Assembly (NCBI GenBank): GCA_045613785.1
Contig: JAZLBQ010000007.1
Span: 32,001 to 96,000 of the forward strand
Reading direction: 5' to 3'
DNA: 64,000 nt
Origin: Candidatus Enterousia sp.
Lineage (GTDB): Bacteria; Pseudomonadota; Alphaproteobacteria; Rs-D84
Position numbers and translations under genes: made by a program. Every line of letters starts with the position of its first letter. Position 1 is the first letter of the stretch. Under the pieces are notes generated by a model that worked only from the letters and a program-made list of their open reading frames with translations, was not told the DNA's origin and did not search any database. This document shows positions 1-50,439 of the stretch, piece after piece.

Positions 1-758
1 CTCAATTTAATAAGAGCCGCAATAATTCTGCGTTGGACACCTGTTCCCATTTGTTCCAGGTTCATCATTCCCGCACTATCTTCGATATTCATAGATATGA
101 TGAATTTTAACATTTCTTCGGGTGTAATACGTCTTGGGCTAAGGTTTACACGCACACCTGCCGATAAAATTTCATTGCTGACTTCATGTCCAACTTTTTC
201 GATATATGGCATTGCAAAGTTCATCATAGGCAGAATTTTTTCTTCAAATTCCTTTTGGAATTTTGGGTTTCTGCAAATCATGCTGACCAGTCCGTTCAAT
301 GCAGAAGTTCCGGACATTTTTGTGTTTTCTTTGACATCAACAACCGCTGGCACATAAATTAAATTGCCCAAGAAGTCAGTTTTTGATCCACGTCTGCCAC
401 GAAATCCGCCACGTTCCAGTCCCTTGGCTGTGTATGCCTGAAAAGGTTTTGAGGGGGACAGACTTTTACGAATTTTTAGTTTCTTATAATCTGTCCGGTA
501 TTTTTTATCCAGGGTATAAAATTCGCTGTCTGTTAAATCATATTCAACTTCTATCCAGGCATTTTTATCATCGATATGTGCAGCATTATGCAAATCAGTT
601 GCCTCGAAACGGATATCGCCGTAAAAGCAACGAATAGCATCGACTATATTGCTTTTACCAACATTGTTTTCGCCAACAATAATTGTATAGTCCTGTAAAT
701 ATACAACTGCGTCCTGTATAGAACGAAAGTTATGAATATGAATATTGTTTATTTTCAT
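1..758 (-). CDS. OLD-family/AAA_15 ABC-type ATPase (ATP-dependent nuclease), partial; runs off the left edge
   Basis: Manual translation from ATG at 758: MKINNIHIHNFRSIQD...IIVGENNVGKSNIVDAI (Walker A)...LIYVPAV...MGTGVQRRII (ABC signature-like). No stop within the window, so it is absent from the ORF track. Confidence 0.85.
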   Translation of the reverse strand, partial: MKINNIHIHNFRSIQDAVVYLQDYTIIVGENNVGKSNIVDAIRCFYGDIRFEATDLHNAAHIDDKNAWIEVEYDLTDSEFYTLDKKYRTDYKKLKIRKSLSPSKPFQAYTAKGLERGGFRGRRGSKTDFLGNLIYVPAVVDVKENTKMSGTSALNGLVSMICRNPKFQKEFEEKILPMMNFAMPYIEKVGHEVSNEILSAGVRVNLSPRRITPEEMLKFIISMNIEDSAGMMNLEQMGTGVQRRIIAALIKL

Positions 759-759
759 T

Positions 760-1317
760 TTACTTTTTTTTGTATCTGATGTGAGTTTCTTCGATAATCA
801 GCATTCTTATCTGGACATGCTTTTCAAAATCACGACGAGCCTGTTCCTGTGTTAGCAGGTTTTTACGATTTTTATTATTTTTTCTATTATCGTATTTTCT
901 GTCGTAACGTTTGTGAGCCTGGTATTTCAACAGTCCTTGGATATAATGATTTTCTTCCCATAAAACAGAATACAGGTATTTTTTTGCCTGATTACGTGTC
1001 ATATTTGGAGCACGCATAAAGTAAGCCGACAAATAATCCGCAACCATTTTTACAAAAGCACCCAAGAAATTTGGATCTGTTGATTTTGCATCTCTGGAAT
1101 CCAGAGTTCTGATATATGTTTTTGTTTGCAAGATGATGAAATTTTCAATTTCTTTATCCCATCTAAAATCATAACGCCATTTGTTTCTGATGTTTTCAGA
1201 TATTGCATATGAATATCCGATTTTATCGTGACCGATTACTTCGCCCTGGATAAAACGAATATAGTTATGAAATAACTTTTCAGACGCACTGTTTTTTTGA
1301 GCTTGTTTTGCTGACAT
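760..1317 (-). CDS. Hypothetical basic protein
   Basis: 185-aa ORF; stop lies 1 nt from the ATPase start; K/R/N-rich C-terminus. Confidence 0.6.
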   Translation of the reverse strand: MSAKQAQKNSASEKLFHNYIRFIQGEVIGHDKIGYSYAISENIRNKWRYDFRWDKEIENFIILQTKTYIRTLDSRDAKSTDPNFLGAFVKMVADYLSAYFMRAPNMTRNQAKKYLYSVLWEENHYIQGLLKYQAHKRYDRKYDNRKNNKNRKNLLTQEQARRDFEKHVQIRMLIIEETHIRYKKK

Positions 1318-1417
1318 AATTTATAACCCTTGGTTCGTGTATTTACACTAATAATATAGAACAAAAAATAAATTTGTCAACTGTTAAAGAGGCGAATTAA
1401 ATGAAAAACACAGGTTT

Positions 1418-2143
1418 TTACGCCTGTGCCTTATTTTTAAGAATGTGGTATTCAATTTGAATCGCTGTTCCAATTCCTGATTCACGCATTTTTTTGGAAA
1501 AAGCGGTGCAATTATGAAATTCTGTTTCCAGTGTTCCCCATCCAGAATATTCCCAATCAATCAGCCCAACAATATCCATTGTCTTCATGTCCACAATAAT
1601 ATTATTGCAGATATCATTGTGGTTCCAACCGTCCCCTTCACCTGTTTTCAGATCTGCAATCTCTGCTGGATCTGCATTATGCATTGCGGCAATAAACTCT
1701 GCCAACTGGCGTCCCCACTTCCAACCATTCTTTGAAATCGCCTTCAATGACATACGGTTCAAATTTTTCCCTGGAATAAAATTATACTTATAGAACGTAA
1801 AACCACGTGATTCAATAATATCAATCCGAGGAATTTTCAGCGGAACGATTTTACCAAATGCATCAGTAATACGCTTTTCACGCATAATTTTTTCAATTGG
1901 GATTTGCTTGTCATAAAACTTTCGTATTTTGCACACATACTTGTTATTGACGATAAAGCCGATATTCCAGCCACCTTTGATAACACGCACACGCTTAAAT
2001 TCCGCACGGGGCAGGGCAGACCGTAATGCATTATATTTTTTTCTGTAATCATACAGGTCAACCCGTCTAATTTTTTCACGCAACTTGCGACTGGGGATAA
2101 AGCCTGCTAAAAAATCCAAAATTTCAAAATATAAACGCCACAT
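1418..2143 (-). CDS. Aminoglycoside phosphotransferase/choline kinase-like protein
   Basis: HNDICNNIIVD (Brenner-like) and GLIDWE motifs; likely start MWRLYF at 2143. Confidence 0.75.
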   Translation of the reverse strand: MWRLYFEILDFLAGFIPSRKLREKIRRVDLYDYRKKYNALRSALPRAEFKRVRVIKGGWNIGFIVNNKYVCKIRKFYDKQIPIEKIMREKRITDAFGKIVPLKIPRIDIIESRGFTFYKYNFIPGKNLNRMSLKAISKNGWKWGRQLAEFIAAMHNADPAEIADLKTGEGDGWNHNDICNNIIVDMKTMDIVGLIDWEYSGWGTLETEFHNCTAFSKKMRESGIGTAIQIEYHILKNKAQA

Positions 2144-2218
2144 CTTCAGAATAATCCTTGGTAAAAAGATAGTATAAATGGTATTGAAAAACAAGAAAAA
2201 AACAAGTATTTTATAGAT

Positions 2219-4411
2219 ATGTTTAATTCCGGCACAATTGTAAAGGTTCTTGTATCAAATATTCCAAACAGTGGCTATGACTATCGCCTGACTGTGCCTG
2301 CGGATATTGGAACATTTGTATCTGTCCGTGTTATGAACCGCCCATGTGTTGGGGTTATTTGGGGGCTAGGGGACAGTAAATTACCGCCTGAAAAAATCAA
2401 GGACATATCGGCTGTCTATCCAAATCGCCTGAATATCACAGACCTGCAATGGATTCAACGAATGTCCCAGTGGACATTGATGCCACTTGGTATGATATTG
2501 CGTTTAATTGTAAATATTCCAGACGCTTTTTCCCCGCCTGCAATGGAACAAATGTATTCTTTTAATGAGGGAACGTCTGTGCGTATGACAGACAATCGTC
2601 TGGCTGTTATGGACGCATTTGCATCAAATGACAACGAGCCAATGACAATATCTGATATACAAAATATATCAGGGGTATCGTCATCTGTTGTTCGCACAAT
2701 GATAAAGAACCAGTCCTTGTTGCCAGTGGCCAGTCGGCCAAAGAATCCCGACCAGTATGTTTATCAATACAGAGACATTGGTAATATTACCCTAAATCCG
2801 CAACAGTCAGCGGCTGCCGATACGATTGGTAAAGCGATAACCAAGGGTGGTTTTTCTGTGCATTTGCTGGACGGAATCACAGGCAGTGGTAAAACCCAGG
2901 TGTATTTTGATTCTGCTTGGCGTGCATACAGTGCTGGGAAATCTGTATTGTTGATGATGCCTGAAATTGCATTGACGGCACAGTTTATTACACGTTTTGA
3001 ATCACGCTTTGGTGCACCGCCGGTTGTCTGGCACAGTAATTTAACGGCTGCTCGTCGTCGTGAAATATGGCGTGGTGTTTTACAAGGCAAAATAAAAATG
3101 GTTGTTGGCACACGCAGTGCATTGTTTTTACCATGGCAAGATATTGGCTTGATTGTTATTGACGAAGAACACGATTCTTCATACAAGCAGGACGACATGG
3201 GCAACTATCACGCTCGTGATATGGCGATTTTGCGTGCAAAAATTGCGGGGTTCCCTGTTGTTTTGGCCAGTGCAACCCCTGCTGCTGAAACATTAGAAAA
3301 TGTATCTGTTGGAAAATATACACAATTGCGGCTTACATCACGATTTGGTGGTGCACAATTACCTAAAATAACAACGATTGATTTACGTGAACACCGTCCT
3401 GTTCCATACTTGGTTGACGGGGTCGAGCAAACAGGTTTTATCTCGCAGCCATTGTGTAAAGCACTAACAGAAACTTTACAAGCCGGCCATCAGGCAATGT
3501 TGTTTATCAATCGTCGTGGTTTTGCACCAATTGTTCAGTGTAAAAAATGTGGCTGGACAGCAACATGTCCTGATTGCAGTGTGGGTATGACTTATCATAA
3601 ACGCCTGGGAAAATTACTGTGCCATATGTGTGGTCGCACGGCTCCGTTAAATACCACATGTCCTGATTGTGGGCTAGATGTATCAATGCGTGGGGTTGGT
3701 TTGGAAAAGATTGAACAAGAAGTAAATATTCGATTTCCAACTGCACGCACTGCATTGGTTTCCAGTGATATCATCACCTCACGCCAGTCGTTAGAGCGTC
3801 TGGTAAATAAAATGGAATCAGGCGAAATAGATATTGTAATCGGCACACAAATCTTGGCCAAGGGGCATCATTTTCCAAACCTGACCTTGGTTGGTGTTGT
3901 TGACAGTGATATGGGCTTGTTTGGTACTGATTTTCGTGCTGCGGAACATACATTCCAACAACTGTTCCAGGTGGCAGGTCGTGCTGGTCGTGGCGAACAC
4001 CCAGGCCAAGTTCTATTACAATCTTATCAGCCAGACCATCCAGTGTTGACTGCAATCTGTGCAGGCGACCGTGATACATTTATGGCGACCGACATGGCAG
4101 GTCGTCGTGCGGCACAAATGCCACCGTATGGACAGTTGATTGCGATAATTGTCGAAGGCGAGCGAGAACCCATCCTGCAACGTTTTTGCAATGAATTGGC
4201 AATGGCTGCACCGAATTTAACAGGTGGTAAAATAATGGGGCCAATCACCGCCCAGATATACCAAATACGCAACTGGTATCGGATGAGATTTTTGGTTGCA
4301 GGTCCTGCAAATGCTGCACTGCAACCGATTGTTTCGCATTGGCTGGCCAAGGTAAAGCAGCCGGCGAATATTCGTGTAAAAATCGACGTAAATCCAATGA
4401 ATTTTATGTAG
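2219..4411 (+). CDS. priA: Primosomal protein N' (PriA)
   Basis: GITGSGKT, DEEHD, two CxxC zinc knuckles, QVAGRAGR, C-terminal IDVNP. Confidence 0.97.
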   Translation: MFNSGTIVKVLVSNIPNSGYDYRLTVPADIGTFVSVRVMNRPCVGVIWGLGDSKLPPEKIKDISAVYPNRLNITDLQWIQRMSQWTLMPLGMILRLIVNIPDAFSPPAMEQMYSFNEGTSVRMTDNRLAVMDAFASNDNEPMTISDIQNISGVSSSVVRTMIKNQSLLPVASRPKNPDQYVYQYRDIGNITLNPQQSAAADTIGKAITKGGFSVHLLDGITGSGKTQVYFDSAWRAYSAGKSVLLMMPEIALTAQFITRFESRFGAPPVVWHSNLTAARRREIWRGVLQGKIKMVVGTRSALFLPWQDIGLIVIDEEHDSSYKQDDMGNYHARDMAILRAKIAGFPVVLASATPAAETLENVSVGKYTQLRLTSRFGGAQLPKITTIDLREHRPVPYLVDGVEQTGFISQPLCKALTETLQAGHQAMLFINRRGFAPIVQCKKCGWTATCPDCSVGMTYHKRLGKLLCHMCGRTAPLNTTCPDCGLDVSMRGVGLEKIEQEVNIRFPTARTALVSSDIITSRQSLERLVNKMESGEIDIVIGTQILAKGHHFPNLTLVGVVDSDMGLFGTDFRAAEHTFQQLFQVAGRAGRGEHPGQVLLQSYQPDHPVLTAICAGDRDTFMATDMAGRRAAQMPPYGQLIAIIVEGEREPILQRFCNELAMAAPNLTGGKIMGPITAQIYQIRNWYRMRFLVAGPANAALQPIVSHWLAKVKQPANIRVKIDVNPMNFM

Positions 4412-4425
4412 AGTTAAAATTGCAG

Positions 4426-5052
4426 TTATCGAACTTTTTGTGCGATTTCTTCTGCTAACTTAGACGTATTCAATACTTGCTTTTGAATTTTGTCTTGCCC
4501 CAGTGCGGCGATAAATACTGTCACCATCATCGCAGGATAAACGACCGTGCCTGCACCTGTTTTTTCATATCCGAAAATCAAATTGTATGCAATCATACAC
4601 AGCATCGCAATCATATTGCCCAGATAAATACGACAGACATATACTTTCATTTTATGTATTGTCTGGTAAAGTTGTTTTAACTGTTCAATTTTTTTCTGTG
4701 TTTCTGCATCAACATTATTTTTAAAATCATTTTCCAGAATTTGAATAAATGCCCAGATTGCTCTGACAGAACCACGTTTAATTTCTGCAATTGCCAATTT
4801 TATCATCATATCACGGATATCACGGATAAAATCTGCTTGTGCATTTTGCCAATTAGTTGAATTTGTCTTGCTAGGTTCAGTTAAAAACTGGTGAGCCTCA
4901 TTTATCTGTTTAAATTTAGCCTCTGCATTTTTGTTGCCTGGATTTTTATCGGGATGATATTGAATTGCCAGCCGTCGCCAAGCCTTGCGAATATCATCAG
5001 GTGTTGCGTTTGGCTGTAAATTTAATAGTGAAAATGCTTCATCTTTCGTCAT
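4426..5052 (-). CDS. DnaJ-domain protein with two C-terminal TM segments
   Basis: J-domain with YHPDKN and KFKQINEA; likely start MTKDEAF; ends QKVR. Confidence 0.8.
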
Positions 5053-8905: not shown

Positions 8906-9703
8906 ATGTCGATAACGATTAGCCCAATCTCGCCGGTTGCATTTTCTGTGCTGGGGTTGGATATTCGCTGGTATGCGCTGGCATATATAGCGGCATTTGT
9001 TGTTGGGTATTGGCTGGTGAAGCGTCTGACATCGAAATCCACCAGCGTAATCCACCTGACCAAGAAAGAACTGGACGACCTGTTGACTGCGATAATAATT
9101 GGCGTTATTGCTGGCGGTCGTTTAGGATATGTTCTGTTTTACGATTTTGGATATTTTATTACACATCCACTTCAGATTTTTGCTGTATGGCACGGCGGAA
9201 TGAGCTTTCATGGTGGGCTTATTGGTGTTATTTTGTCAGTTTTGTTATTTGCACGGAAAAATCACAAGAACGCAATGTTTATTCTTGATGTATTAGCTGT
9301 TGCAGCACCTATTGGCTTATTTTTTGGTCGCATTGCAAATTTTATAAATCAAGAGGTTATGGGGCGTCCAACCGACGTTCCTTGGGCGGTTGTTTTTGAT
9401 GGTGGGGTTCCAATTCCACGCCACCCCAGCCCACTATACGAAGCAGCAACCGAAGGCATTTTGTTATTTGTTATAATGTATAGTCTATATCGCTGGACAA
9501 ATTTACGTCGTTATCCTGGTGCGTTAGGCGGGATAATGGGTATGGGGTATGCGGTTTTTCGTATGTTTTGTGAACTATACCGTGCACCTGATGCACACAT
9601 TGGATTTCTGACGACATGGGGGCTAACAATGGGGCAGTTGTTGTCATTTATAATGTTTTTTGCAGGATTTATAATTTTTATGTTTGCAATTCGCAAAAAA
9701 TAA
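8906..9703 (+). CDS. lgt: Prolipoprotein diacylglyceryl transferase
   Basis: IRWYALAY, GGRLGYVLFY, GGMSFHGG, GRIANFINQE, HPSPLYEA. Confidence 0.97.
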   Translation: MSITISPISPVAFSVLGLDIRWYALAYIAAFVVGYWLVKRLTSKSTSVIHLTKKELDDLLTAIIIGVIAGGRLGYVLFYDFGYFITHPLQIFAVWHGGMSFHGGLIGVILSVLLFARKNHKNAMFILDVLAVAAPIGLFFGRIANFINQEVMGRPTDVPWAVVFDGGVPIPRHPSPLYEAATEGILLFVIMYSLYRWTNLRRYPGALGGIMGMGYAVFRMFCELYRAPDAHIGFLTTWGLTMGQLLSFIMFFAGFIIFMFAIRKK

Positions 9704-9755
9704 TGTAGAATAGTCGCCGTTGACCAGAAAAAAATCGGTTAGCGAAAAAGGTTTA

Positions 9756-9845
9756 GGATGGTTGGCAGAGCGGTCGAATGCGGCGGTCTTGAAAACCGTT
9801 GTGGGGGCAACTCCACCGGGGGTTCGAATCCCTCACCATCCGCCA
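9756..9845 (+). tRNA. tRNA-Ser(TGA)
   Basis: GGATGGT/ACCATCC acceptor; anticodon loop CTTGAAA; long variable arm; GGTTCGAATCC; encoded CCA. Confidence 0.96.
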
Positions 9846-9848
9846 GAA

Positions 9849-10857
9849 ATAAAAAATGTCCCTTGTGGGCATTTTTTTATTTCGGTGTCGGTGGTCGGAT
9901 GAGAACCCCGGGTTCGACAACAAGTAGATTTTGCAAATAAATTTGTATAAAGTATTTGACAAAAATACTTTGTGTGTTGTATGTTGTGGCGAGGTATAAA
10001 ATGAAAGTAGAACACAAGCACATATTGATTAATTCAAATAACATCAGAGAATATCGCAAACAGGGGGCTCTGGTTGGTGGCTCGCATACAAGCGGCTGGG
10101 ATTTCTTTAATAATAAAAAAGTTGCTGACAGCACTGTAACTGTGTATAACTACAGTTTTGAGCCAGAATTATGTATTCATTCTTCTGACAAAGTATATCA
10201 AGCGGCAAAAAAAATAAATTCCGAGCAAGAAAACATTGCTGTTCACGAGATTAAACATGCTAAAAATGCAGACCAAGGACTTCCTTTTCATCTGGCAAGC
10301 GGGGTGTGTTGGACGCATGTAGCATTATACTGTCTTGACGAGTTGTCTGCACGCATTGACGAGGCCTTATATTCAATCAACAACACAAAATTAAAGTCTG
10401 TCTATTCGCAGTTCCTAGATTGTCTTGGTGTTTCACAGCTTGAGCGTGCAGTTAGTATCGCATTAAAGAGATTTGCACCATTGTTCCAAGATTATTGCAT
10501 GAAAGGTGTGTCTAGCTTTGAAAATTCGGTTCAGATGGCAAATTTCTCTGAAAAAGATTTGCAAGCATTTTTACAAAGCCAGCAACGACTATATTCTTGT
10601 TCGTTTAAAATGTCGCGTCCTGTTTTATACTCTATCAGTTTCCATGAAGCTGTGGGGAATTATTTTAGGTTTGATTCGATTCCAGAAAAGAACGTATTTA
10701 GCAGACAGGCAGCACATGAACTACGCAGTTTTTGGACAAAGTGCGAGCCAGAAATTATGCGTCATTCCAAAGACTGTATTAGTCGGATGTTGCAAAAAAC
10801 ACGATAAAAGTTTTTGTACTTTTTATGATAAAAAATGTCCATTGTGGGCATTTTTTT
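9849..10857 (+). repeat. 30-bp direct repeat of the tRNA-Ser terminator (9849-9878 and 10828-10857) bracketing one gene
   Basis: ataaaaaatgtcc(c/a)ttgtgggcattttttt; one mismatch. Confidence 0.85.
10001..10807 (+). CDS. Hypothetical zincin-like (HExxH) protein ending QKTR
   Basis: AVHEIKHAKN...DELSA; start MKVEHK after GAGGT RBS. Confidence 0.65.
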   Translation: MKVEHKHILINSNNIREYRKQGALVGGSHTSGWDFFNNKKVADSTVTVYNYSFEPELCIHSSDKVYQAAKKINSEQENIAVHEIKHAKNADQGLPFHLASGVCWTHVALYCLDELSARIDEALYSINNTKLKSVYSQFLDCLGVSQLERAVSIALKRFAPLFQDYCMKGVSSFENSVQMANFSEKDLQAFLQSQQRLYSCSFKMSRPVLYSISFHEAVGNYFRFDSIPEKNVFSRQAAHELRSFWTKCEPEIMRHSKDCISRMLQKTR

Positions 10858-40919: not shown

Positions 40920-41117
40920 ATGAGAAATTTTTTCAAGGGTGGATATTTATCTGGATATCGCACCTATATAATTTCTGCAAGTGGGATTATATCTGCGGTT
41001 GCGGCATATCTGGTTGGAGATGCAGATTTATTTACAATGTTGCAGACAATATTTACATTAGCGGGGATATATTTTTTACGACGCTCTAATGAAAACAAAG
41101 GACAAGACAATGGATAA
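40920..41117 (+). CDS. Small holin-like membrane protein
   Basis: LSGYRTYI...two TM segments...GIYFLRR. Confidence 0.6.
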   Translation: MRNFFKGGYLSGYRTYIISASGIISAVAAYLVGDADLFTMLQTIFTLAGIYFLRRSNENKGQDNG

Positions 41118-41766
41118 AATACCAGAAAAATTTTTAAATTCTGATGGAACATTAAACAGTGAGATGTTGGTAAAATCATACACAGAATTGGAAAAGAAAT
41201 TAAACACAATGATATCGATTCCAACAGCAGATGATACGCCCGATATTCGTCAAAAATTTAATCGTGCAATTGGTGTTCCAGAAACGCCATCGCAATATCC
41301 AACAAATGAATTATACGACGACGAGAATTTGCGTCAGAAATTTTTTGATATTGGTTTAACATCAAAACAGGTAGAAAAGATTTATGACATTGCGAATGAA
41401 TTTTTAACACCGATTGTATCAGAAATTTTTTCTGTTCAAAATCAATCCAGTGCAATAAATGAATTAAGAAATTTTTTTGGCACAGAACAAAAAATGATAG
41501 ATGCCTTAACTGCGATTGAATCATTTGGAATACGTTTTTTGCCGCACGATGCATTTGTTGAATTATCGGCTACAGCCCAGGGAATTCAAAGCATTTATAA
41601 GATGATGCAAACAATGGAACCCAGTGTTCACACTGATAAAAATTCAAATGAAAATTTATCAGATTCTGATTTGCGACGCATGATGCAAGATCCAAAATAT
41701 TGGCGTGATAATGATACAGAATACATTCGCAAAATAGAAAACGGATTTAAAAAATTATATTCATAA
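41110..41766 (+). CDS. Phage capsid assembly (scaffolding) protein
   Basis: IPEKF...LVKSYTELEKKL; C-terminal MMQDPKYWRD...F.KLY. Confidence 0.75.
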   Translation: MDKIPEKFLNSDGTLNSEMLVKSYTELEKKLNTMISIPTADDTPDIRQKFNRAIGVPETPSQYPTNELYDDENLRQKFFDIGLTSKQVEKIYDIANEFLTPIVSEIFSVQNQSSAINELRNFFGTEQKMIDALTAIESFGIRFLPHDAFVELSATAQGIQSIYKMMQTMEPSVHTDKNSNENLSDSDLRRMMQDPKYWRDNDTEYIRKIENGFKKLYS

Positions 41767-41872: not shown

Positions 41873-42334
41873 ATGGGATTTTTCTTTAGAAAATCTAAAA
41901 AAGTAGAAGAAGTAAAACCAGTTGTAAAACCAGCAACAAAGAAAGCAACTGCAAAAAAACCAGCTGCCAAGAAAGTGGCTGCAAAACCAGCTGCAAAAAA
42001 AGTAGCGGCAAAACCAGTTGCAAAAAAAGTAGCTGCAAAACCAGTTGCAAAGAAAGTGGCTGCAAAACCAGTTGCAAAAAAAGTGGCTGCAAAACCAGTT
42101 GCAAAGAAAGTAGCTGCAAAACCAGTTGCAAAAAAAGTAGCTGCAAAACCAGTTGCAAAGAAAGTAGCTGCAAAACCAGTTGCAAAAAAAGTAGCTGCAA
42201 AACCAGTTGCAAAGAAAGTAGCTGCAAAACCAGTCGCAAAAAAAGTGGTTGCAAAACCAGTCGCAAAAAAAGTGGTTGCAAAACCAGTTGCAAAGAAAGC
42301 TTGTGCGAAAAAAGCATGTGCTAAAAAGAAATAA
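41873..42334 (+). CDS. Histone H1-like (Hc2/BpH1-type) Lys/Ala-rich protein
   Basis: 12 KKV(A/V)AKP(V/A)A repeats; AGGAG RBS region; own terminator. Confidence 0.85.
   Translation: MGFFFRKSKKVEEVKPVVKPATKKATAKKPAAKKVAAKPAAKKVAAKPVAKKVAAKPVAKKVAAKPVAKKVAAKPVAKKVAAKPVAKKVAAKPVAKKVAAKPVAKKVAAKPVAKKVAAKPVAKKVVAKPVAKKVVAKPVAKKACAKKACAKKK
41969..42292 (+). repeat. 12 x 27-bp coding tandem repeat
   Basis: Unit aa(a/g)aaagt(a/g)gctgcaaaaccagttgca. Confidence 0.92.
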
Positions 42335-42543: not shown

Positions 42544-42753
42544 ATGTCTGTTTCCATAGATAACGTATTTGTGAAACAATTCGAAGCGGATGTTCATTTG
42601 GCATATCAACAAATGGGCACAAAACTGCGTTCTACTGTTCGCAGTAAATCGGGTGTTATTGGTGCATCAACAACATTTCAAAAGGTCGGTCGTGGCACAG
42701 CCAGCACAAAATCACGTCATGGTATTGTTCCTGTGATGAATTTGAATCACTAA
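42544..42753 (+). pseudogene. Phage major capsid protein, N-terminal fragment only
   Basis: MSVSIDNVFVKQFEADVHLAYQQMGTKLRSTVR...FQKVG...KSRHG..P.MNL.H, then stop at 69 aa. Confidence 0.75.
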
Positions 42754-42926
42754 TAGATTACACACACCAGGTTATCCAGGATAAATTGGGGGGTGGGGCA
42801 GTATTGGGACTTTACAGAAATCTGCTGTCAGTTTTGGAAAATGCGCTGCCAAAATTGATAAATGATTATGGGCTGATAACAGAAACAGTTCCAAACGATA
42901 ATTGCGATGATTACGGAGTTTTATAA
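42750..42926 (+). pseudogene. Start-less 3' fragment of the gene preceding the terminase (small terminase position)
   Basis: Open frame LIDYTHQVIQDKLGG...DDYGVL-stop overlaps the terminase start; no ATG found upstream in frame. Confidence 0.5.
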
Positions 42927-43509
42927 ATTTCTGGACACCTGGAACGACCTGTTAGGATTCAAGACCCCAAAGCATCATCGTCAGATAATGAAGTTTCTAT
43001 ATGATGTTTTGTGTGAATCACCGCATCGTGGATTGCTGATGGCATTTCGTCATTCTGGTAAATCGACGGTTGTTGGTATATTTGCGGCATGTGTTTTATA
43101 TTTGCGTCCCCAGACCCGAATTTTGATTTTATCTGCGGAAACCGGGCTGTCATCACGAATGGTGTCGCATATCAGGCATATATTGGAAAATCATCCGTAT
43201 TGTCAATCAATGATTCCTGCGAATAAAAAAGAGTGGGCTAATGGTCGCATAACTATAAATCGTCCGATTGGCATTCGTGAACCGTCTGTAATTTGCCAAG
43301 GTATTCACGGCAATATAACCGGTATGCGTGCAGATTTAATAATTTGTGATGATATCGAAGTGCCAAACACATCAAACACCGCCCAAAAAAGGGAATTTTT
43401 GCGTGAACGCTTGCGTGAACTAGATTTTATACTATCGCCCAACGGTGCAATGATTTATATTGGCACACCGCATACACATGATACTATTTATCAAACGGGG
43501 CTTGACTAG
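42907..43509 (+). CDS. Phage terminase large subunit, ATPase half only
   Basis: LMAFRHSGKS (Walker A), ADLIICDDIE (Walker B), YIGTPH coupling motif, then stop. Confidence 0.85.
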   Translation: MITEFYKFLDTWNDLLGFKTPKHHRQIMKFLYDVLCESPHRGLLMAFRHSGKSTVVGIFAACVLYLRPQTRILILSAETGLSSRMVSHIRHILENHPYCQSMIPANKKEWANGRITINRPIGIREPSVICQGIHGNITGMRADLIICDDIEVPNTSNTAQKREFLRERLRELDFILSPNGAMIYIGTPHTHDTIYQTGLD

Positions 43510-44147
43510 TTCAGACTGCTGACAAACGTCCGCAATTTACCCAGCAGTTCACTGCCCGCATCGCCGAACATTGGCAGATAAGTTTCATATTCTGGCATAT
43601 CGGCTTGAACCTGTGCACGAACACGTTCAGATATTGGGTTAGTAATAATTTCATTTGCACTGTCCCATAATCTGTATGCGTTGTATGTTTGGATAACCAT
43701 ATTCCATTTAGGCATTAAATCAGGACGCTTGGCCAGGGCAGCACGAATACCTGGTTGCCATTCTTCGCCGAAATCTTGGACAATTGCCAGTCCCATAAAC
43801 ATATCCAATCCTGTTTGGTCTGGTGTAAAATTATTTAATCCTTCTTCCAGTTCGTTCCATTGATTTTTGGTCAGGCTAACCGAATGAATTTCTTCATTTG
43901 TCATCATGCCACCGTATGGCAATAACTCTGGTTCGATTGAATTGATATCTGTCTTACCGCTACGCAGATTTTCGATATGTTGCACCAACAATTTACCTGT
44001 TGGCATTTCTTTCAGCTCCTTGATAACATCATCAGAAGCCTCGTTCAAGAAAACAGGATTTACAGTTGCCCAGCCACCAATAATAACATGTTCTTGGCGA
44101 TACAGATTTAACAGTCTTAGTGCGGTTGTGCTGCTTTTTGTGTTCAT
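43506..44147 (-). CDS. Hypothetical protein, third gene of the dnaB operon
   Basis: 213-aa ORF with GGAGAG RBS. Confidence 0.7.
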   Translation of the reverse strand: MNTKSSTTALRLLNLYRQEHVIIGGWATVNPVFLNEASDDVIKELKEMPTGKLLVQHIENLRSGKTDINSIEPELLPYGGMMTNEEIHSVSLTKNQWNELEEGLNNFTPDQTGLDMFMGLAIVQDFGEEWQPGIRAALAKRPDLMPKWNMVIQTYNAYRLWDSANEIITNPISERVRAQVQADMPEYETYLPMFGDAGSELLGKLRTFVSSLN

Positions 44148-44170
44148 TTTCTCTCTCCATAAGATTGGGA

Positions 44171-45178
44171 TTATTCGATTACAATCATCACAACCTTGTG
44201 CATTGTTTGTGCAGTAATTTTTTCTTCTGGTGAAACGATTTGTCCGTAAACTTTACCTTTGGAATCGCTGCGAACACTAACGATTTGTGCAGATACAGAT
44301 GTTTCATCATCCAACGAATCAAAGTCTGCATCAAAAGCGACGGCTAAATCACCAGGCTGTGCCACAGCGGTTGAGTCTGCAAACACATATGATTTTTCAG
44401 GGATAAAACCGCCCAGGCGTTTAGTATTAGGCATAACTGCATAAACACCGGTTTTGCCTTCTAAAGTGCTTGGTGCGACAATCATTGTTTTATCAGATTT
44501 TTTGAAAGTGATTGCCTTGCCTGTAGGTGTTCCAAAGACTGGCACCAGTTTTTTACGTGCACTGTCATATAATTTTGCACCATACAAACTGCCGTGCATA
44601 TCAATGCCAGACATTGGATTTCCAGGTTCCAAGACAGATTTAACACGTTCTTTGACCTTGCTGATTTGTTTGTTTAATTCGCCAGATTTATACAAGTTTG
44701 CAATCTTGTCGAACAAATCTTCTGCCCCCAGTGCAAATGATTTTGCCAATGGTTCGATTTCGTTTTTATAGATTTCACGCTGACCGACTTCGATTTTATG
44801 GTAAACAGACAAAGTCATACCGGCGTCTTTTGCAGCCTGTGCAATAGTTTTACCTTTTTGCTGGCGGATTTTACGTAATCCGCTACCAAAGACCTTTAAA
44901 CCGCTGTCTTCGTTATCGTTCAATCGTCTTTTGATTTCGCTTTGCCATTGACCTGCGACATCATCAGATTCTTTGATGAAAATATCGGATAATTTGCAGC
45001 CCAAAATATTGCATATATTCAGCAGTTGTTTTTGGTTCAGACGTCTGACACCTTTTTCAATTTTTGAAACAGCAGACAAAGACAATCCGGCCTTGCGTGC
45101 CAATTCTGTCATCTTCATACCATTTGCCAATCGAATATTGCGAATATTATTTGGAAAGATAATTTCTTCTTGGGCCAT
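44171..45178 (-). CDS. Double XRE-HTH regulator with degenerate S24-like C-terminal domain
   Basis: Two HTH_3-like units (ELARKAGLSLSAVSKIEKG; AAKDAGMTLSVYHKIEVG); VPVFG...YAV...PGDLAV. Confidence 0.85.
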   Translation of the reverse strand: MAQEEIIFPNNIRNIRLANGMKMTELARKAGLSLSAVSKIEKGVRRLNQKQLLNICNILGCKLSDIFIKESDDVAGQWQSEIKRRLNDNEDSGLKVFGSGLRKIRQQKGKTIAQAAKDAGMTLSVYHKIEVGQREIYKNEIEPLAKSFALGAEDLFDKIANLYKSGELNKQISKVKERVKSVLEPGNPMSGIDMHGSLYGAKLYDSARKKLVPVFGTPTGKAITFKKSDKTMIVAPSTLEGKTGVYAVMPNTKRLGGFIPEKSYVFADSTAVAQPGDLAVAFDADFDSLDDETSVSAQIVSVRSDSKGKVYGQIVSPEEKITAQTMHKVVMIVIE

Positions 45179-45253
45179 TGCAAACTCCTAAATGACTATT
45201 ACTTGACAAAATAATAGTCAATTTTTAACAACGGTGCAAGGAAATAATTATAA

Positions 45254-46819
45254 TTACAATGGCATATCGTCTGGAATTGCATCAGGGTCGATTGCTGTTG
45301 GTTCGGCATAAGCGTCATCAACAAATCCTGAATTTGATTGAGTAGGTGCTGGCTGTGCAAAATCGTTTTCACCACGAGCTTCAAAATCGTTCAGGTTGTC
45401 GAACAAACTGTAATCTCCAAAGAACGCTGTTCGCACAGTTTCTGGTCGTCCATGACGGTTTTTACCGATGATGATATCAGCCTTACCACGTGCCCGTTCT
45501 AATCTGTTTTGCCAAGAATCATGTGCTGATGAATTTACATTATTTGACATACGTTCGTTTGGATCACGGTTTTGCAGATAGTATTCTTCACGATATGTAA
45601 ACATAACGATGTCAGCGTCCTGTTCAATAGATCCAGATTCACGCAAGTCTGACAACATTGGTCGTTTATCATCACGAGATTCCACACTACGTGACAGCTG
45701 AGACAATGCGATAACAGGCACATCTAATTCTTTGGCCAACATTTTTAGACCTCTGGTAATTTCAGAAATTTCCTGAACACGATTATCGCTGTGTTTTCCG
45801 CCTGGGGATGTCATCAACTGTAAATAGTCCAAAACAATCAGTGCGATTCCGCCGTGTTTGCGTGCCAACCGTCTGGCTCTAGTTCGCATCATAGGCACAG
45901 ACATACCTGGTGTATCATCGATGAACAGTGGCACTTTGCCGATTGCAGCAGAATATTGCGACATTTTCAAGAAATCTTCATCAGTCAATTTACCTTCACG
46001 CATTGCTGTTGCGGGAACTTTTGATTGCGAAGACAGCACACGTGCCGCCAGCTGTGAAGCCGACATTTCAAGGCTGAAAAACACAACAGCACCCTTGTAA
46101 TTTTTATTTGCTCGTCCGTATGCGATGGCATTTGCGGCATTAAACGCAATATTCATTGCCAATGTTGTTTTACCCATCGCAGGTCGTCCTGCAATAATAA
46201 TCAAGTCCGAATGATGCAACCCACTGATTGAACCGTCCAGTGCGTCCAAGCCAGTTGTCAGACCTGACAATTGACCGTCTGCCTTGTATGCGATTTCTGC
46301 TTCGTTCAATGCACTTGCCAATGCGGCAGAAATAGGTGTGACCTCACGCTCAGAAGCCCCTGTTGTTGCCATTTCGAACAGTTTTTGTTCTGCCATTTCG
46401 ATTTGGCGTGCCACAGGCGTGTCCAGATCCTCGACAAAAGCCTTGCCTACGATATCCTGACCCAAGGCGATTAAATCACGACGCATTGCGTGTTCATAAA
46501 CAATACGTCCATATTGCTCAACGTTGACAACGGTTGTTCCTGCACTGGCCAACTGGCTTAGATAATCAACACCACCAACAGATTCCAAAACGCCTTGTTG
46601 GTCCAGATAGTTTTTTGCAGTAATGATATCGAACGGGATACCGGCGGCAAACTGCCGATTTGCCAACTTAAAAATTTCTTGGTGTGCGGGGTGGGTAAAG
46701 TGTTCCGCCCGCAGGAATTCACCCACACGTTCCAACGCACGATTGTCCATCAGCACAGCGGCCAACACGGCCTGTTCTGCTTCCAAGTTTTCAGGCAATT
46801 TTTTGGGGGTAAAATCCAT
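45254..46819 (-). CDS. dnaB: Replicative DNA helicase
   Basis: NLEAEQAVL, AGRPAMGKT, FSLEMS, LDYLQL, LSQLSR, DLRESGSIEQDAD; start MDFTPK after AAGGA. Confidence 0.98.
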   Translation of the reverse strand: MDFTPKKLPENLEAEQAVLAAVLMDNRALERVGEFLRAEHFTHPAHQEIFKLANRQFAAGIPFDIITAKNYLDQQGVLESVGGVDYLSQLASAGTTVVNVEQYGRIVYEHAMRRDLIALGQDIVGKAFVEDLDTPVARQIEMAEQKLFEMATTGASEREVTPISAALASALNEAEIAYKADGQLSGLTTGLDALDGSISGLHHSDLIIIAGRPAMGKTTLAMNIAFNAANAIAYGRANKNYKGAVVFFSLEMSASQLAARVLSSQSKVPATAMREGKLTDEDFLKMSQYSAAIGKVPLFIDDTPGMSVPMMRTRARRLARKHGGIALIVLDYLQLMTSPGGKHSDNRVQEISEITRGLKMLAKELDVPVIALSQLSRSVESRDDKRPMLSDLRESGSIEQDADIVMFTYREEYYLQNRDPNERMSNNVNSSAHDSWQNRLERARGKADIIIGKNRHGRPETVRTAFFGDYSLFDNLNDFEARGENDFAQPAPTQSNSGFVDDAYAEPTAIDPDAIPDDMPL

Positions 46820-46838
46820 GACACAATCCTTTTCTTCT

Positions 46839-47132
46839 ATGCCCATAGTATATGAAAAAAACGCTTTTTCAACGCCTTTTTTATCGGGATATAAAACCTT
46901 GAAAATTCCGATAGTTAGTCCTGAGGGCGAACCTGCATGGCCTGAATTGTTTCCACTTTCCAGGATTCATCAATTACAAGAAACAGTTGGACATCGCCAC
47001 TTTTCGTCTCAGATGATGCTGGAATTTGTTCCGCCAAATCGCATTCGCCTAGATCCTGGAAGTTTGCATTTTTACGACAGCGAATTTGACCGTCGGTCGG
47101 CAAATCAGTCTTGGAACATTTGCGTCAGATAA
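46839..47132 (+). pseudogene. Continuation of the terminase large subunit, truncated
   Basis: PFLSGYKTLKIPI..EGEPAWPELF...FSSQMML...RLDP; start at ATG 46839 or TTG 46899; similarity is lost at about 47104. Confidence 0.7.
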
Positions 47133-47257
47133 CAATTGAACGTCCAATTGGTTCAAACGCCACTGATAATGAATTACGCTGGTTTGCTGCTCAGTCAGCA
47201 CTGGTCCGTCACATAGAATCTCTTGTTTCCCAGGGCAGGGGGTGTTCAAATGTTTAA
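47099..47257 (+). pseudogene. Start-less C-terminal part of a Bbp19-like phage protein
   Basis: GKSVLEHLRQITIERP...ELRWFAAQSALVRHIESLV; in-frame TGA at 47087 and no start codon. Confidence 0.6.
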
Positions 47258-47486
47258 CCTGGAATTTTTACGCAACAGTTGGTTTTTGATTGCATTTATT
47301 GGTGGGCTGATTTATTGGGCAGCTCGCCAAGATTTATCTGTTGCGGAACACGAACACTTTGACAGTCGTATAACCTCGCTGGAAAATCGCACGACGATAC
47401 TGGAAACTGGTATTGGTCAGATTCAGATAAAAATAGACGACATCAAAGAAGATTTAAATTTAATAAAAAGTGCCGTTATAAAGTAA
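47250..47486 (+). CDS. Small TM plus coiled-coil phage-like protein
   Basis: MFNLEFLRNSWFLIAFIGGLIYW...RITSLENRTTILE. Confidence 0.65.
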   Translation: MFNLEFLRNSWFLIAFIGGLIYWAARQDLSVAEHEHFDSRITSLENRTTILETGIGQIQIKIDDIKEDLNLIKSAVIK

Positions 47487-47517: not shown

Positions 47518-48030
47518 ATGGCACGCAGCATCAGATTCCGCCGTGGAACGGCAGTTCAGCATGAAACATTTACCGGTGCCCAGGGGGAAATCACAGTTGA
47601 CACGACAAACAACACCCTACGGGTTCACGATGGTTTAACGCTTGGTGGCACCATCTTGGCGAAACGCAGTGAAATTCCAGATTTTTCTGGGGTTGACTAC
47701 GTTATTGCCTGGCAAAACCCCAGCCCAGAAAACAATTACACCTGGTATCGGAAATATAAATCTGGTTGGGTTGAACAGGGGGGCAGTGATTTTACCCCCA
47801 GAACCATAAATGCAGGCACGGGAACAGCCTGGTATGTCCCAATGCCGGTCCCGATGAGTGATACAAAATACAACATTCAAATATCATTTGACAACGGGAA
47901 CTTGGTCCCTGCTGTGAATAATAACAATCTGACAACCACAACCCAGGTTTATTTGGGCTGTAAAAACCAGGGCAGTGCAAATGTCACCAGCCAGGTTCAA
48001 TATTGGTATGTCTGCGGAATATCTGCATAA
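47518..48030 (+). CDS. Short tail-fibre-like protein (Mtd N-terminal motif plus WYRKY.SGWVEQGG domain)
   Basis: IRFRRGT..H..FTGAQGEITVDT....LRVHDG...GG. Confidence 0.8.
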   Translation: MARSIRFRRGTAVQHETFTGAQGEITVDTTNNTLRVHDGLTLGGTILAKRSEIPDFSGVDYVIAWQNPSPENNYTWYRKYKSGWVEQGGSDFTPRTINAGTGTAWYVPMPVPMSDTKYNIQISFDNGNLVPAVNNNNLTTTTQVYLGCKNQGSANVTSQVQYWYVCGISA

Positions 48031-48055: not shown

Positions 48056-49642
48056 TTACTTTAATTTTATACCTGTCCATTCCGTAACATTTTTAATTTG
48101 TTCGTCATTTTTGCTTTCTGCGACGTTTGTTGCGGCTAATGTCATCTCGTTAGTCAAACGCAATTCACGTGCAGGATTTACATAAACACACTTGAAATCA
48201 GACGGCACAACATTTATCAACGTCTGGTTTTTAACAGCCATTGCCCAGAACCAAACATCGTCCGCCAACGGTGCCAACTTTTGAAACATTGGCTGATTTA
48301 AGACGTCTTTATCCAATACGTGTGGCGGATACAAAACACCGCCAACCCCGGTCAAGAAGTTCAGATAAGACGGTGTTTTATTTTTCGTCTGATGTTCCCA
48401 CTTGTTATACGGGCGCAAATTCCCACGTTTATCAAACAATATTTTATGCGCACGCAGGCAATGAATCTGATTTGGTGTTTTCAGGTATGCATTGTATAAT
48501 TTTTCAACCAACCAATCAGGATAATAAATATCGTCATCAACGGTTATTATTATATCATTTGGAAATTCCTTTAATGACGGCACCAGTTTTGTATAAGACC
48601 GAATATCATCACACCATTTGATTGTTAAACCCTTGTCCAGAAACTGCAATACAGATTCCGGTAAATCTGCTTCTTTGTTTGGGAATTTATCCGCACCCAA
48701 CCACAAAACAATCATATCGGGTTTTAATGTCTGGGTCAGCAAAGAATACAATGTAAAATGAATATCAGACATCCGTTGTGGAAATGACGTCAACGACATA
48801 ATAATCCGTGGATTGCGTCCTGAATTTTTATCAATGCCAACATCGTTAAAATTTTTAATCTGTTCGTCAATCGCATTGCGGTCAATGTGCGGAATTGAAT
48901 CAATCTGTGATTGCCGCCAATTTGCCAACGTCCATGGATTAGAACGGTCCCACGTAATTCCACGTTTTACAATTTGTCCCGGGTTGCCGGCAATAACAAC
49001 ATTTGTTTCCACATAGTTCCGATAGCAAACAGCCCCACCTGAAACGATTGAATTATCGTGAATGTTTGCACGCTTGGTTATTCTGACGCCTTCGCCCACC
49101 CAAACATGATTACCAATAACAACAGGACCAGTTGGTGTATTCAAAATTTCCAATGTTTTCACATCCAGCACCGAATGACCATCCGATGCCCATATGTTAA
49201 TCGAATTTGAAAACATACAATCGTTTCCAATTATGCAACCACTGCGTTCTGGCAGTTTTATTGTTGTTCCATAAAATGTTGAACCTCGTCCAATTTTACA
49301 AATCTGTCCATCACCACAACGAATGTCGATATTTACATTATAAAACTTTGGCGAAGAACCGATTTCAACCAACGCATTATCATTTTCAATCGTGATTGCT
49401 GAATTTGTTGCCACGATTGGCAATTCCAGTTTAACTGTATTGTTATTACCACGGATTTTGATTTTCAAACCGTTTATGGTTTCGTTTTTACGCATTGGCC
49501 GTTCAACACCATTTTCAACAATGATAATCCGGTTGTTTTGACCAACGTTTTTCTGTGTCTTGCGATAACTGATAATCTTAACCCCTAACAAATAAATATG
49601 TCGGCGGCCATTTGGGTATCTGACTTTTTTGAAAATCTTCAT
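48056..49642 (-). CDS. Fusion of a hexapeptide acetyltransferase and a GT-A glycosyltransferase
   Basis: SDGH, IGNHVWVGE, AGNP; then SLTSFPQR, SYTKLVP, TVDDDIYY, GVGGVLYPP, DDVWF. Confidence 0.85.
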   Translation of the reverse strand: MKIFKKVRYPNGRRHIYLLGVKIISYRKTQKNVGQNNRIIIVENGVERPMRKNETINGLKIKIRGNNNTVKLELPIVATNSAITIENDNALVEIGSSPKFYNVNIDIRCGDGQICKIGRGSTFYGTTIKLPERSGCIIGNDCMFSNSINIWASDGHSVLDVKTLEILNTPTGPVVIGNHVWVGEGVRITKRANIHDNSIVSGGAVCYRNYVETNVVIAGNPGQIVKRGITWDRSNPWTLANWRQSQIDSIPHIDRNAIDEQIKNFNDVGIDKNSGRNPRIIMSLTSFPQRMSDIHFTLYSLLTQTLKPDMIVLWLGADKFPNKEADLPESVLQFLDKGLTIKWCDDIRSYTKLVPSLKEFPNDIIITVDDDIYYPDWLVEKLYNAYLKTPNQIHCLRAHKILFDKRGNLRPYNKWEHQTKNKTPSYLNFLTGVGGVLYPPHVLDKDVLNQPMFQKLAPLADDVWFWAMAVKNQTLINVVPSDFKCVYVNPARELRLTNEMTLAATNVAESKNDEQIKNVTEWTGIKLK

Positions 49643-49656
49643 TTTGTATCCTTTGT

Positions 49657-50439
49657 TTATGCAATATTGCTCGGTTCTCCATATTGTTTAATATATTGTT
49701 CATATTTTTCTTTATATGCAGCTTCTTCTGGTCTAAAACTGTGCCACGAACCAACCCAATACACATTTTTGCGTTTTACTTGTGCAGGATTGCCTGCAAT
49801 CATTACATTATTGCCCGGCATTTCCTTTGTAACGACGGCTTTTGTTGCAACTATACAGTCGTTACCAATTTTTGCTTTTTTAAGAATTGTTGCCCCTGCA
49901 CCAATCCATACGTGGTCGCCAATGATTAAATCGTGTGGGGTGTCAACATATTCGTGTGTTTCTGAATCAAAAACCAAATGTGGAATTTCGCCCAGTCTGA
50001 ACAAAATATCCTTGGACATCAGACAGCGTTTACCAACGTGCAGTTTGCAATGATGTTGTTCAACCAAGATTTCTATAGCTACTATACATGCCCCTTCATC
50101 AATAAATATTTCAGAATTACTTATTTCTATATGGTTTCCAATATTGATGTGAACTGACTGGATTTCGCTTGATGGCATAATATGGATTTTATTATTGTTT
50201 CCACGGATATGAATATTCAGTTTTCCTCCACGCACAGATTTTCCAACAGTTATTTTATTATTATTTCCATAAATTGCGACACGGGCACGAATGGTTTCGT
50301 TATCAATATCGATTTGATTGTTTACTCCGGCATTAAGGATAATATTTTTTTGCTTTTTGCGATAAGAAAAAACCTTTATTCCTAAAAAGTAGATATGTCT
50401 GCGACCATTTTTGAAACGCACTTTTTTGAAAATTTTCAT
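49657..50439 (-). CDS. Hexapeptide-repeat O-acetyltransferase
   Basis: IGDHVWIGAGATILK, IAGNPA. Confidence 0.88.
   Translation of the reverse strand: MKIFKKVRFKNGRRHIYFLGIKVFSYRKKQKNIILNAGVNNQIDIDNETIRARVAIYGNNNKITVGKSVRGGKLNIHIRGNNNKIHIMPSSEIQSVHINIGNHIEISNSEIFIDEGACIVAIEILVEQHHCKLHVGKRCLMSKDILFRLGEIPHLVFDSETHEYVDTPHDLIIGDHVWIGAGATILKKAKIGNDCIVATKAVVTKEMPGNNVMIAGNPAQVKRKNVYWVGSWHSFRPEEAAYKEKYEQYIKQYGEPSNIA

Follow-up and report, generated by a model that had tools for sequence, protein, structure and literature searches.

The 64,000-nucleotide stretch of Candidatus Enterousia sp. analyzed here (the window; assembly GCA_045613785.1, contig JAZLBQ010000007.1, forward-strand positions 32,001-96,000) carries the remains of a T7-like particle gene set, whose large terminase is encoded in two parts on either side of a block of genes that includes dnaB. 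We consider it highly probable that this is an old domesticated gene set with a terminase split around dnaB, and that the copy in this genome was recently inactivated by two deletions. Candidatus Enterousia belongs to the order Rs-D84, gut Alphaproteobacteria with genomes of about 1 Mb (PMC12306168); the words phage, terminase and FtsZ are absent from that article. The genome assembly studied here is metagenome-derived, comprises 1.04 Mb in 26 contigs and is 96.5% complete. The locus lies on a contig of 142.5 kb with both deletion junctions deep inside it.

An initial annotation, made from the sequence of the window, had described two same-strand terminase parts separated by a 3.3-kb gap, and profile searches confirmed this. 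The first part, TerN, is an open reading frame (ORF) of 200 amino acids that ends in ...IGTPHTHDTIYQTGLD*. It matches positions 272-459 of the 760 positions of phrog_38 (E 4e-42) and positions 1-190 of the 500 positions of the T7-type large terminase family NF033889 (termin_lrg_T7) with 228.7 bits (cut-off 150). The frame with PFLSGYKTLKIPI..., located on the same strand, matches phrog_38 positions 468-539 and represents the second part, TerC. TerC of a relative (locus L025) alone matches NF033889 positions 231-500 with 85.6 bits, a value under the cut-off for the whole protein. As the phrog_38 and NF033889 matches of TerN and TerC are consecutive, the two are parts of one terminase. Alignment with P0007, an unsplit homologue of 471 amino acids, gave the same picture. 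TerN aligns to residues 6-200 and the L025 TerC to residues 202-448, indicating a clean cut at P0007 residues 200/201 with nothing missing. The first ~20 residues of TerC have no counterpart in P0007.

Both halves carry invariant residues. In 33 TerN sequences, including that of the window, the columns G51 K52 S53, D148 D149 E151 and G186 T187 P188 H189 are invariant; we take them to be the Walker A motif, the Walker B motif with the catalytic glutamate and the coupling motif of a P-loop ATPase. The TerC proteins of relatives comprise 277-294 amino acids with invariant W97 D98 P99, E163 N165 and D242 D243. An RNase H-like nuclease was thus found in the relatives but not in the window, where TerC ends before every invariant nuclease column. 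The second part described in the initial annotation is indeed the TerC frame, but no more than a stub, in which 95 homologous codons run on into 9 out-of-frame ones. ATPase and nuclease were not found on a single polypeptide, as the two halves form distinct ORFs both in the window and at each examined Rs-D84 locus that holds the pair.

The initial annotation had placed the split at the end of the ATPase domain. In the AlphaFold model of P0007 (predicted local distance difference test, pLDDT, 90), the break is located in a coil (residues 186-206) between the strand bearing the GTPH motif (176-185) and strand 207-211, which is followed by helices (228-247) and the beta-rich nuclease. According to this model the break is inside the ATPase fold, near its end, and not at the domain border, with TerC adding one strand and two helices. 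Structure matches of P0007 were 8dgc_E and 4bij_A. Single-chain homologues from other Alphaproteobacteria, 120 listed proteins of 405-534 amino acids and some of them on contigs up to 2.9 Mb, share 45-54% identity with TerN in alignments that cover 89-100% of it; hosts named in the sources include Roseospira marina, Caenispirillum bisanense and Roseospirillum parvum.

The two deletions were defined by comparison with the nearest relative (locus L044; 93-95% nucleotide identity, blastn). The window aligns with L044 in three blocks, skipping L044 positions 642-4601 (3,960 bp) and 8966-10846 (1,881 bp). Deletion 1 extends from capsid codon 71 to fibre codon 122 and removed p77, tail tube A, tail tube B and p115. 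Deletion 2 removed TerC from codon 96 to its end, the whole portal gene of 411 amino acids and the first 16 codons of p68. Junction microhomology is short (~6-8 bases) and consists of AATCAC at deletion 1 and GG.AAA at deletion 2. The intact plus-strand order in L025 reads scaffold, lysine-rich protein, capsid (291 amino acids), p77, tail tube A, tail tube B, p115, fibre N-terminal protein, TerN, the antisense block, TerC, portal (411 amino acids, PF12236), two small genes and the Mtd_N protein. In the window, the portal, both tubes, p77 and p115 are absent from this set, and capsid, fibre and TerC are truncated. Neither the lost genes nor their DNA (5.8 kb in total) were found elsewhere on any contig of the assembly, and the genome contains no portal match. 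With the TerC nuclease domain, the portal and the capsid-to-fibre genes gone, this gene content indicates that no working terminase or particle can be made here. The one further capsid-like match in the genome, on contig C21, was considered as the missing arm and rejected, since it sits on a separate phage-like contig. C21 (L127, L128; 40.6 kb, outside the window) looks like a separate phage or prophage and encodes a major head protein, an Erf-like annealing protein, a RecE-like exonuclease, a helicase/primase, a DNA methyltransferase, a thymidylate synthase and an HNH endonuclease.

The remaining genes show no sign of decay. Compared with L044, we counted 42 synonymous and 3 non-synonymous changes in TerN, 12 and 3 in the TerC stub, 8 and 0 in the capsid stub and 6 and 0 in the fibre remnant, which is 100% identical in amino acid sequence over 46 codons. 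The pattern is similar to that of dnaB (102.5 synonymous and 4.5 non-synonymous changes). Synonymous divergence from L044 is 0.2-0.4, and no frameshift was found in the remaining genes. The near-absence of amino acid changes in the remnants indicates that nearly all of the divergence arose under selection and that the deletions are recent.

To place the split in the lineage, we compared 80 Enterousia loci picked by TerN similarity. The order TerN, hyp213, xre, dnaB, TerC was found in all 73 loci that cover the five genes, and TerC is full length in 71 of 71 loci whose DNA reaches it; partial or missing entries are all located at contig ends. TerN was detected in 38 of 41 relatives, with 24 of 24 positive within the genus and 13 of 16 in the order's other families. 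Its frame is open, with 198-228 amino acids, the only exceptions being two weak matches that are unrelated. TerC is present in 24 of 24 genomes of the genus and in 11 of 16 genomes of other families. In five loci from other families (L033, L037, L039, L041 and L042) TerN and TerC are adjacent yet separate ORFs, 174-380 nucleotides apart, and they are also separate ORFs in four loci of genus g3 that hold both. The gene birA adjoins the cluster in 57 of 57 loci that reach it. Median pairwise ratios of non-synonymous to synonymous substitution rates (dN/dS; pairs limited to dS 0.05-1.5, i.e. 299 of 3,160 pairs for TerN) were 0.096 for TerN, 0.146 for TerC, 0.070 for the portal and 0.067 for the capsid, and 0.059 for dnaB, 0.076 for xre, 0.197 for hyp213 and 0.123 for birA. 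A portal was found in 189 of the 200 other genomes from the genus; among genomes that are at least 90% complete it occurs in 146 of 150, this genome being counted as a miss. These sequence comparisons support an old and stable split that is shared in the lineage and under purifying selection. The stable two-polypeptide terminase proposed in the initial annotation therefore holds for the lineage, including purifying selection on both halves, but not for this genome with its deleted nuclease domain and portal. Among the Rs-D84 loci examined there was no unsplit terminase; the copy in the window is broken by deletions, but its remnants show no relaxed selection.

The gap between the two halves is occupied differently in another family. 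In genus g3 of family f3 it holds ftsZ (PF00091, PF12327) and a portal gene (L035:11139-12821, L038:13384-15096, L040:6764-8347, L043:3632-5425 and L036:1598-3349). This ftsZ is the sole FtsZ_C match in each of four genomes checked; hence, another essential gene of the cell cycle occupies the corresponding gap there. As a separate observation, none of 25 Enterousia genomes, this one included, gave a match to the FtsZ/tubulin GTPase domain (PF00091), versus 14 of 16 genomes of other families; the control was positive in 13 of 14 known genomes, and tblastn with a g3 FtsZ gave no match in this genome. Judging from these searches, Enterousia may be without a recognisable FtsZ.

A complex of the two halves, which the initial annotation had suggested modelling, was predicted with TerN of the window and the full TerC of a relative. 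It reached a score of 0.88, while the best control scored 0.00; the mark applied to this score is reached by 116 of 157 solved complexes and by 2 of 215 mismatched pairs. Agreement between runs amounts to at least 98% of contacts, with a pLDDT of at least 79 for the partner. In the predicted complex, TerC strand 13-20 pairs with TerN strand 41-48. All TerC residues predicted to contact TerN (8-61) are inside the retained stub.

The 3.3-kb gap consists of three antisense genes, hyp213, xre and dnaB, corresponding to the hypothetical gene, XRE regulator and dnaB of the initial annotation. dnaB is the sole DnaB_C match in the genome. It passes the cellular equivalogs NF006606 (614.5 bits, cut-off 540) and TIGR00665 (507.4 bits, cut-off 385.25) and fails phage_DnaB (408.1 bits, cut-off 498.65). 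The block fits tightly between the halves. At the TerN border, the stop codons of TerN and hyp213 overlap as CTAG (43506-43509), and such a 4-nucleotide overlap occurs in 49 of 74 loci. At the TerC border, the start of dnaB that is conserved corresponds to Met10 in the longest ORF, because alignments begin at residue 10 in 5 of 9 same-genus loci and 18 nucleotides upstream are absent from several loci. An ATG in the TerC frame (46818-46820) is 97-100% conserved among 74 loci. With the conserved dnaB and TerC ATGs on opposite strands, the start codons interlock as CATG. The TTG at 46899, previously put forward as a possible TerC start, is replaced by CTG, TTA or CTT in relatives. The likely dnaB promoter TTGAAA-16-TACTAT noted in the initial annotation was also found by a promoter scan. 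Every base of the TTGAAA -35 hexamer is 95-100% identical across the 74 loci, and the site is almost invariant, even at third positions within TerC codons 17-21; in codons 22-32 third positions are conserved to only 35-91%, mostly below 70%. On its antisense strand, the dnaB promoter region encodes the first ~20 residues of TerC. No repeats were found at the block borders (43509 and 46818) apart from scattered short chance pairs, in agreement with the initial annotation. hyp213 had no Pfam, PHROG or NCBIfam match and no usable protein-atlas match. Its AlphaFold model is all-helical (pLDDT 82.8); Foldseek against the PDB gave no match at E <=0.001, and the best VIA-align Z of 6.0 covers only a helical hairpin of 53 residues.

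Two other accounts of the gap were considered. The phage-like genes of the cluster and the XRE regulator in the block, a type of protein typical of phages, might point to a dead prophage in which a mobile cassette with a phage-type dnaB recently interrupted the terminase. This is hardly credible, as all 73 loci share one gene order, birA adjoins the cluster in all 57 that reach it, and dnaB is a sole copy of the cellular type without flanking repeats. Moreover, all genes are under purifying selection, and the halves are separate even where no block lies between them. The other account, rejoining of the gene by programmed excision, an intron, an intein or translational bypass, has a negligible probability in our judgement. 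It could draw on the 174-380-nucleotide TerN-TerC spacers of the five loci from other families, but no Rfam intron was detected at the gathering threshold in six loci, nor at E <=1 in two spacers. TerN ends ~10 residues after the GTPH motif, and an intein half would not fit in ~10 residues. Programmed excision, which had been raised as a speculative option in the initial annotation, would delete the sole dnaB; in addition, junction repeats are missing, and the stop and start codons of the block overlap those of both halves.

A second Enterousia species provides an independent case of loss. In genome G044 (L129, G044:C1:28000-47000; 145-kb contig) capsid residues 12-211, TerN residues 68-205, the dnaB block, TerC residues 1-66 and Mtd residues 30-189 are left, which corresponds to two deletions, one per arm, both ending short of the dnaB block. 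TerN residues 1-67 including Walker A are gone. dnaB of G044 is 96% identical to that of L025, dnaB of the window 88%; this relationship and the different end points indicate an event separate from the deletions of the window. According to the initial annotation, anchoring to an essential gene would prevent loss of the locus. The two deletions in the window and the independent ones in G044 contradict this: judged by the sequences of both genomes, nesting around dnaB did not prevent loss but probably forced it into two separate deletions.

In genome G049 (L130, G049:C24:1-9847; 9.8-kb contig; 96% complete, 6% contaminated) dnaB, xre and hyp213 are present without terminase flanks. Its dnaB is preceded by a related GGCGTTGA...TTTTTCATA sequence in the absence of TerC. 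Neither a portal nor a TerN/TerC-type terminase was found in the rest of this genome; a terminase match on its contig C34 was rejected as the single-chain 477-amino-acid enzyme of an unrelated phage, 25% identical to TerC over 123 residues. G049 may represent either a complete loss or an older arrangement. The high-quality genomes G011 and G046 and the genome G166 also gave no portal match. In G011 the region runs into a contig end; G046 and G166 were rejected as cases of loss, since dnaB was likewise not found and the region is probably unassembled.

Could the remaining halves still serve a function in this genome? A working two-polypeptide terminase held by its anchoring to the essential dnaB, as envisaged in the initial annotation, would be in line with the intact TerN ORF and its invariant motifs, with the conservation and selection of the arrangement in relatives and with the presence of all predicted TerN-contacting TerC residues in the stub. 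We regard it as very improbable, because the stub stops before the nuclease columns, the genome lacks the portal, the tubes and most of the capsid, and G044 also lost both arms, including the Walker A part of TerN. Slightly better, though still quite improbable, are the prospects of a nuclease-free ATPase, formed by TerN and the TerC stub, that is kept for a new cellular role. The whole predicted TerN interface is in the stub, and TerN differs from L044 by 42 synonymous and only 3 non-synonymous changes; low dN/dS, however, is equally explained by recent deletions, TerN of G044 is devoid of residues 1-67 including Walker A, and the overlap of the stub with the dnaB promoter sequence explains its retention without a protein function.

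The evidence is best accommodated by the recent inactivation of an old split-terminase cluster, for which we envisage the following course. A stripped-down T7-like particle gene set would have been inherited with the chromosome in the lineage. Its large terminase was probably divided long ago at a surface loop that follows the GTPH strand, giving rise to TerN (~200 amino acids) and TerC (~280 amino acids). In Enterousia, the 3.3-kb antisense block fills the gap with no spare DNA. A single motor is most likely restored in relatives by association of the two chains. The set of this genome would have been inactivated recently by two deletions, presumably mediated by microhomology and located one on each side of the dnaB block. 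The sole dnaB cannot be deleted, and the element would consequently be lost only arm by arm, with stubs that persist as they overlap signals of the dnaB operon.

Several observations weigh against this scenario. The choice of the 80 loci by TerN similarity under-samples genomes with a damaged TerN, such as G044. The complex prediction may merely recall solved single-chain terminases of the T7 type (8dgc, 4bij), so that binding of the halves is a predicted one. The block of G049 without terminase flanks demonstrates that the stubs are not strictly needed for dnaB. The literature searched reports no Enterousia particles, and the cluster is known from its genes alone, with no packaged DNA or transcript seen. 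Finally, the deletions are known from assembled contigs alone and are possibly a population variant or an assembly artefact, and neither junction sequence was found in any other public assembly: exact searches gave 0 matches in genome contigs for a 30-mer and a 26-mer and 0 matches in metagenome contigs for the 30-mer, which is a weak test as relatives differ by at least 5%. Artefacts of assembly or binning, such as a chimeric contig or collapsed strain variants that hide an element intact in the organism, would be compatible with these null results, with a metagenome assembly of 26 contigs and with remnants free of decay. We nevertheless consider them unlikely. The junctions are deep inside a 142.5-kb contig, the missing 5.8 kb are on no other contig, a microhomology of ~6-8 bases was judged far too short to mislead a k-mer assembler, and G044 displays the same kind of two-arm loss.

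The features of the locus are compiled in Table 1. Full-length capsids of relatives comprise 275-291 amino acids. The KKVAAKP-repeat protein between scaffold and capsid (153 amino acids) consists almost wholly of repeats, and the opposite strand holds long repeat-driven ORFs; by its composition, it could be a DNA-condensing component of the particle. Downstream of the cluster (48056-50439), two adjacent minus-strand genes for proteins of 528 and 260 amino acids with the common N-terminus MKIFKKVR..NGRRHIY.LG.K resemble paralogous sugar-modifying enzymes. The 528-amino-acid protein is 92% identical to its L044 counterpart and thus more diverged than its neighbours.

Table 1. Features of the split-terminase locus, in positions of the window.
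Feature	Position	Strand	Evidence
Scaffold (T7-type capsid assembly), intact	41089..41766	+	PF05396, E 2.7e-10; full-length alignment with scaffold of a relative
Lysine-rich KKVAAKP-repeat protein (histone H1/HC2-like), between scaffold and capsid	41873..42334	+	ORF; weak PF07382 match, 27 bits, below cut-off 40
Major capsid stub, first 70 codons of ~275-291	42544..42753	+	PF19821 positions 1-66 of 293
Deletion 1 junction, 3,960 bp missing	42745..42753	.	blastn against L044; AATCAC microhomology
Fibre/tail N-terminal protein (183 amino acids), C-terminal remnant	42786..42926	+	tblastn, residues 100-183 of 183
TerN, N-terminal 200 amino acids of T7-type large terminase (ATPase core), ORF intact	42907..43509	+	phrog_38, NF033889
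hyp213, conserved protein, predicted all-helical	43506..44147	-	stop codon overlaps TerN stop (CTAG)
XRE-family regulator, two helix-turn-helix domains, 335 amino acids	44171..45178	-	PF01381, 2 stretches
dnaB, cellular replicative helicase	45254..46819	-	conserved start ATG 46819-46817; longest ORF from 46846
dnaB promoter-like site TTGAAA-16-TACTAT, inside TerC codons 10-19	46845..46872	-	promoter scan; near-invariant in 74 loci
TerC stub, 95 homologous codons, then 9 out-of-frame; nuclease domain gone	46818..47132	+	phrog_38; comparison with relatives
Deletion 2 junction, 1,881 bp missing	47099..47104	.	blastn against L044
Small gene p68, remnant without its start	47111..47257	+	L044 gene map
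Conserved cluster gene of 87 amino acids, intact	47223..47486	+	100% amino acid identity to L044; dN/dS 0.10 in relatives
Tail protein with Mtd_N domain, intact	47518..48030	+	PF18454, E 4.3e-15

To our knowledge, all large terminases combine ATPase and nuclease on one chain. We found no paper on the phage-like cluster of Enterousia or on a split terminase, and the accessible part of a review on jumbo phages mentions none. A two-gene terminase that was long kept under selection offers a natural test of how the ATPase and nuclease activities must couple. Furthermore, the window and G044 contain the first decayed copies known to us, suggesting that the element is dispensable and that wrapping around dnaB is not protective. 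The essential block would rather dictate the pattern of loss, namely two separate deletions with stubs at both borders.

The closest known counterpart is the T7-type large terminase (T7 gp19/DNA maturase B, 4bij; PhiV-1 TerL, 8dgc; NF033889), with which TerN shares the ATPase motifs and TerC of relatives the RNase H-like nuclease columns. In contrast to these enzymes, the Rs-D84 terminase is divided between two ORFs; the break lies in a loop that follows the GTPH strand, host genes occupy the gap, and in the window the nuclease half is deleted. It likewise differs from the unsplit alphaproteobacterial homologues, which are single-chain proteins. An analogous arrangement exists in herpesviruses, where the two exons of UL15 flank the antisense genes UL16 and UL17 and are spliced into one polypeptide. 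Both are terminase ATPase/nuclease genes interrupted by several kb with genes on the opposite strand, but no intron is detectable in Rs-D84, and the halves have stop and start codons of their own.

As a whole, the gene set of the relatives resembles gene transfer agents (GTAs). The RcGTA type is unlike the T7-type gene set. Besides the RcGTA-type agents of Alphaproteobacteria and BaGTA, a podovirus-like agent, FpGTA, is described from Faecalibacterium (PMC12946183; PMC9662315). In common with GTAs, the relatives have a phage-derived head, tail and packaging set at a fixed chromosomal place, inherited across genus and order with dN/dS values of 0.07-0.20. Differences are the terminase in two pieces, the nested essential host genes and a cluster known from genes alone; the copy in the window is, in addition, devoid of most of the capsid, the tubes, the portal and the nuclease. 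If GTA-like, the cluster would extend the small range of known kinds by a podovirus-like candidate of the T7 type, from an abundant lineage of gut and rumen bacteria whose genomes are tiny. That it is a working podovirus-type GTA with a two-chain motor, in which the nesting of dnaB or ftsZ is functional and not accidental, is conceivable but doubtful. Were it true, head-on and divergent overlapping transcription would couple particle production to a shut-off of replication or division in the producing cell, and the nested XRE protein would act as the switch. In that case, natural knock-outs of such a GTA would be present in the window and in G044, lost arm by arm owing to the essential block.

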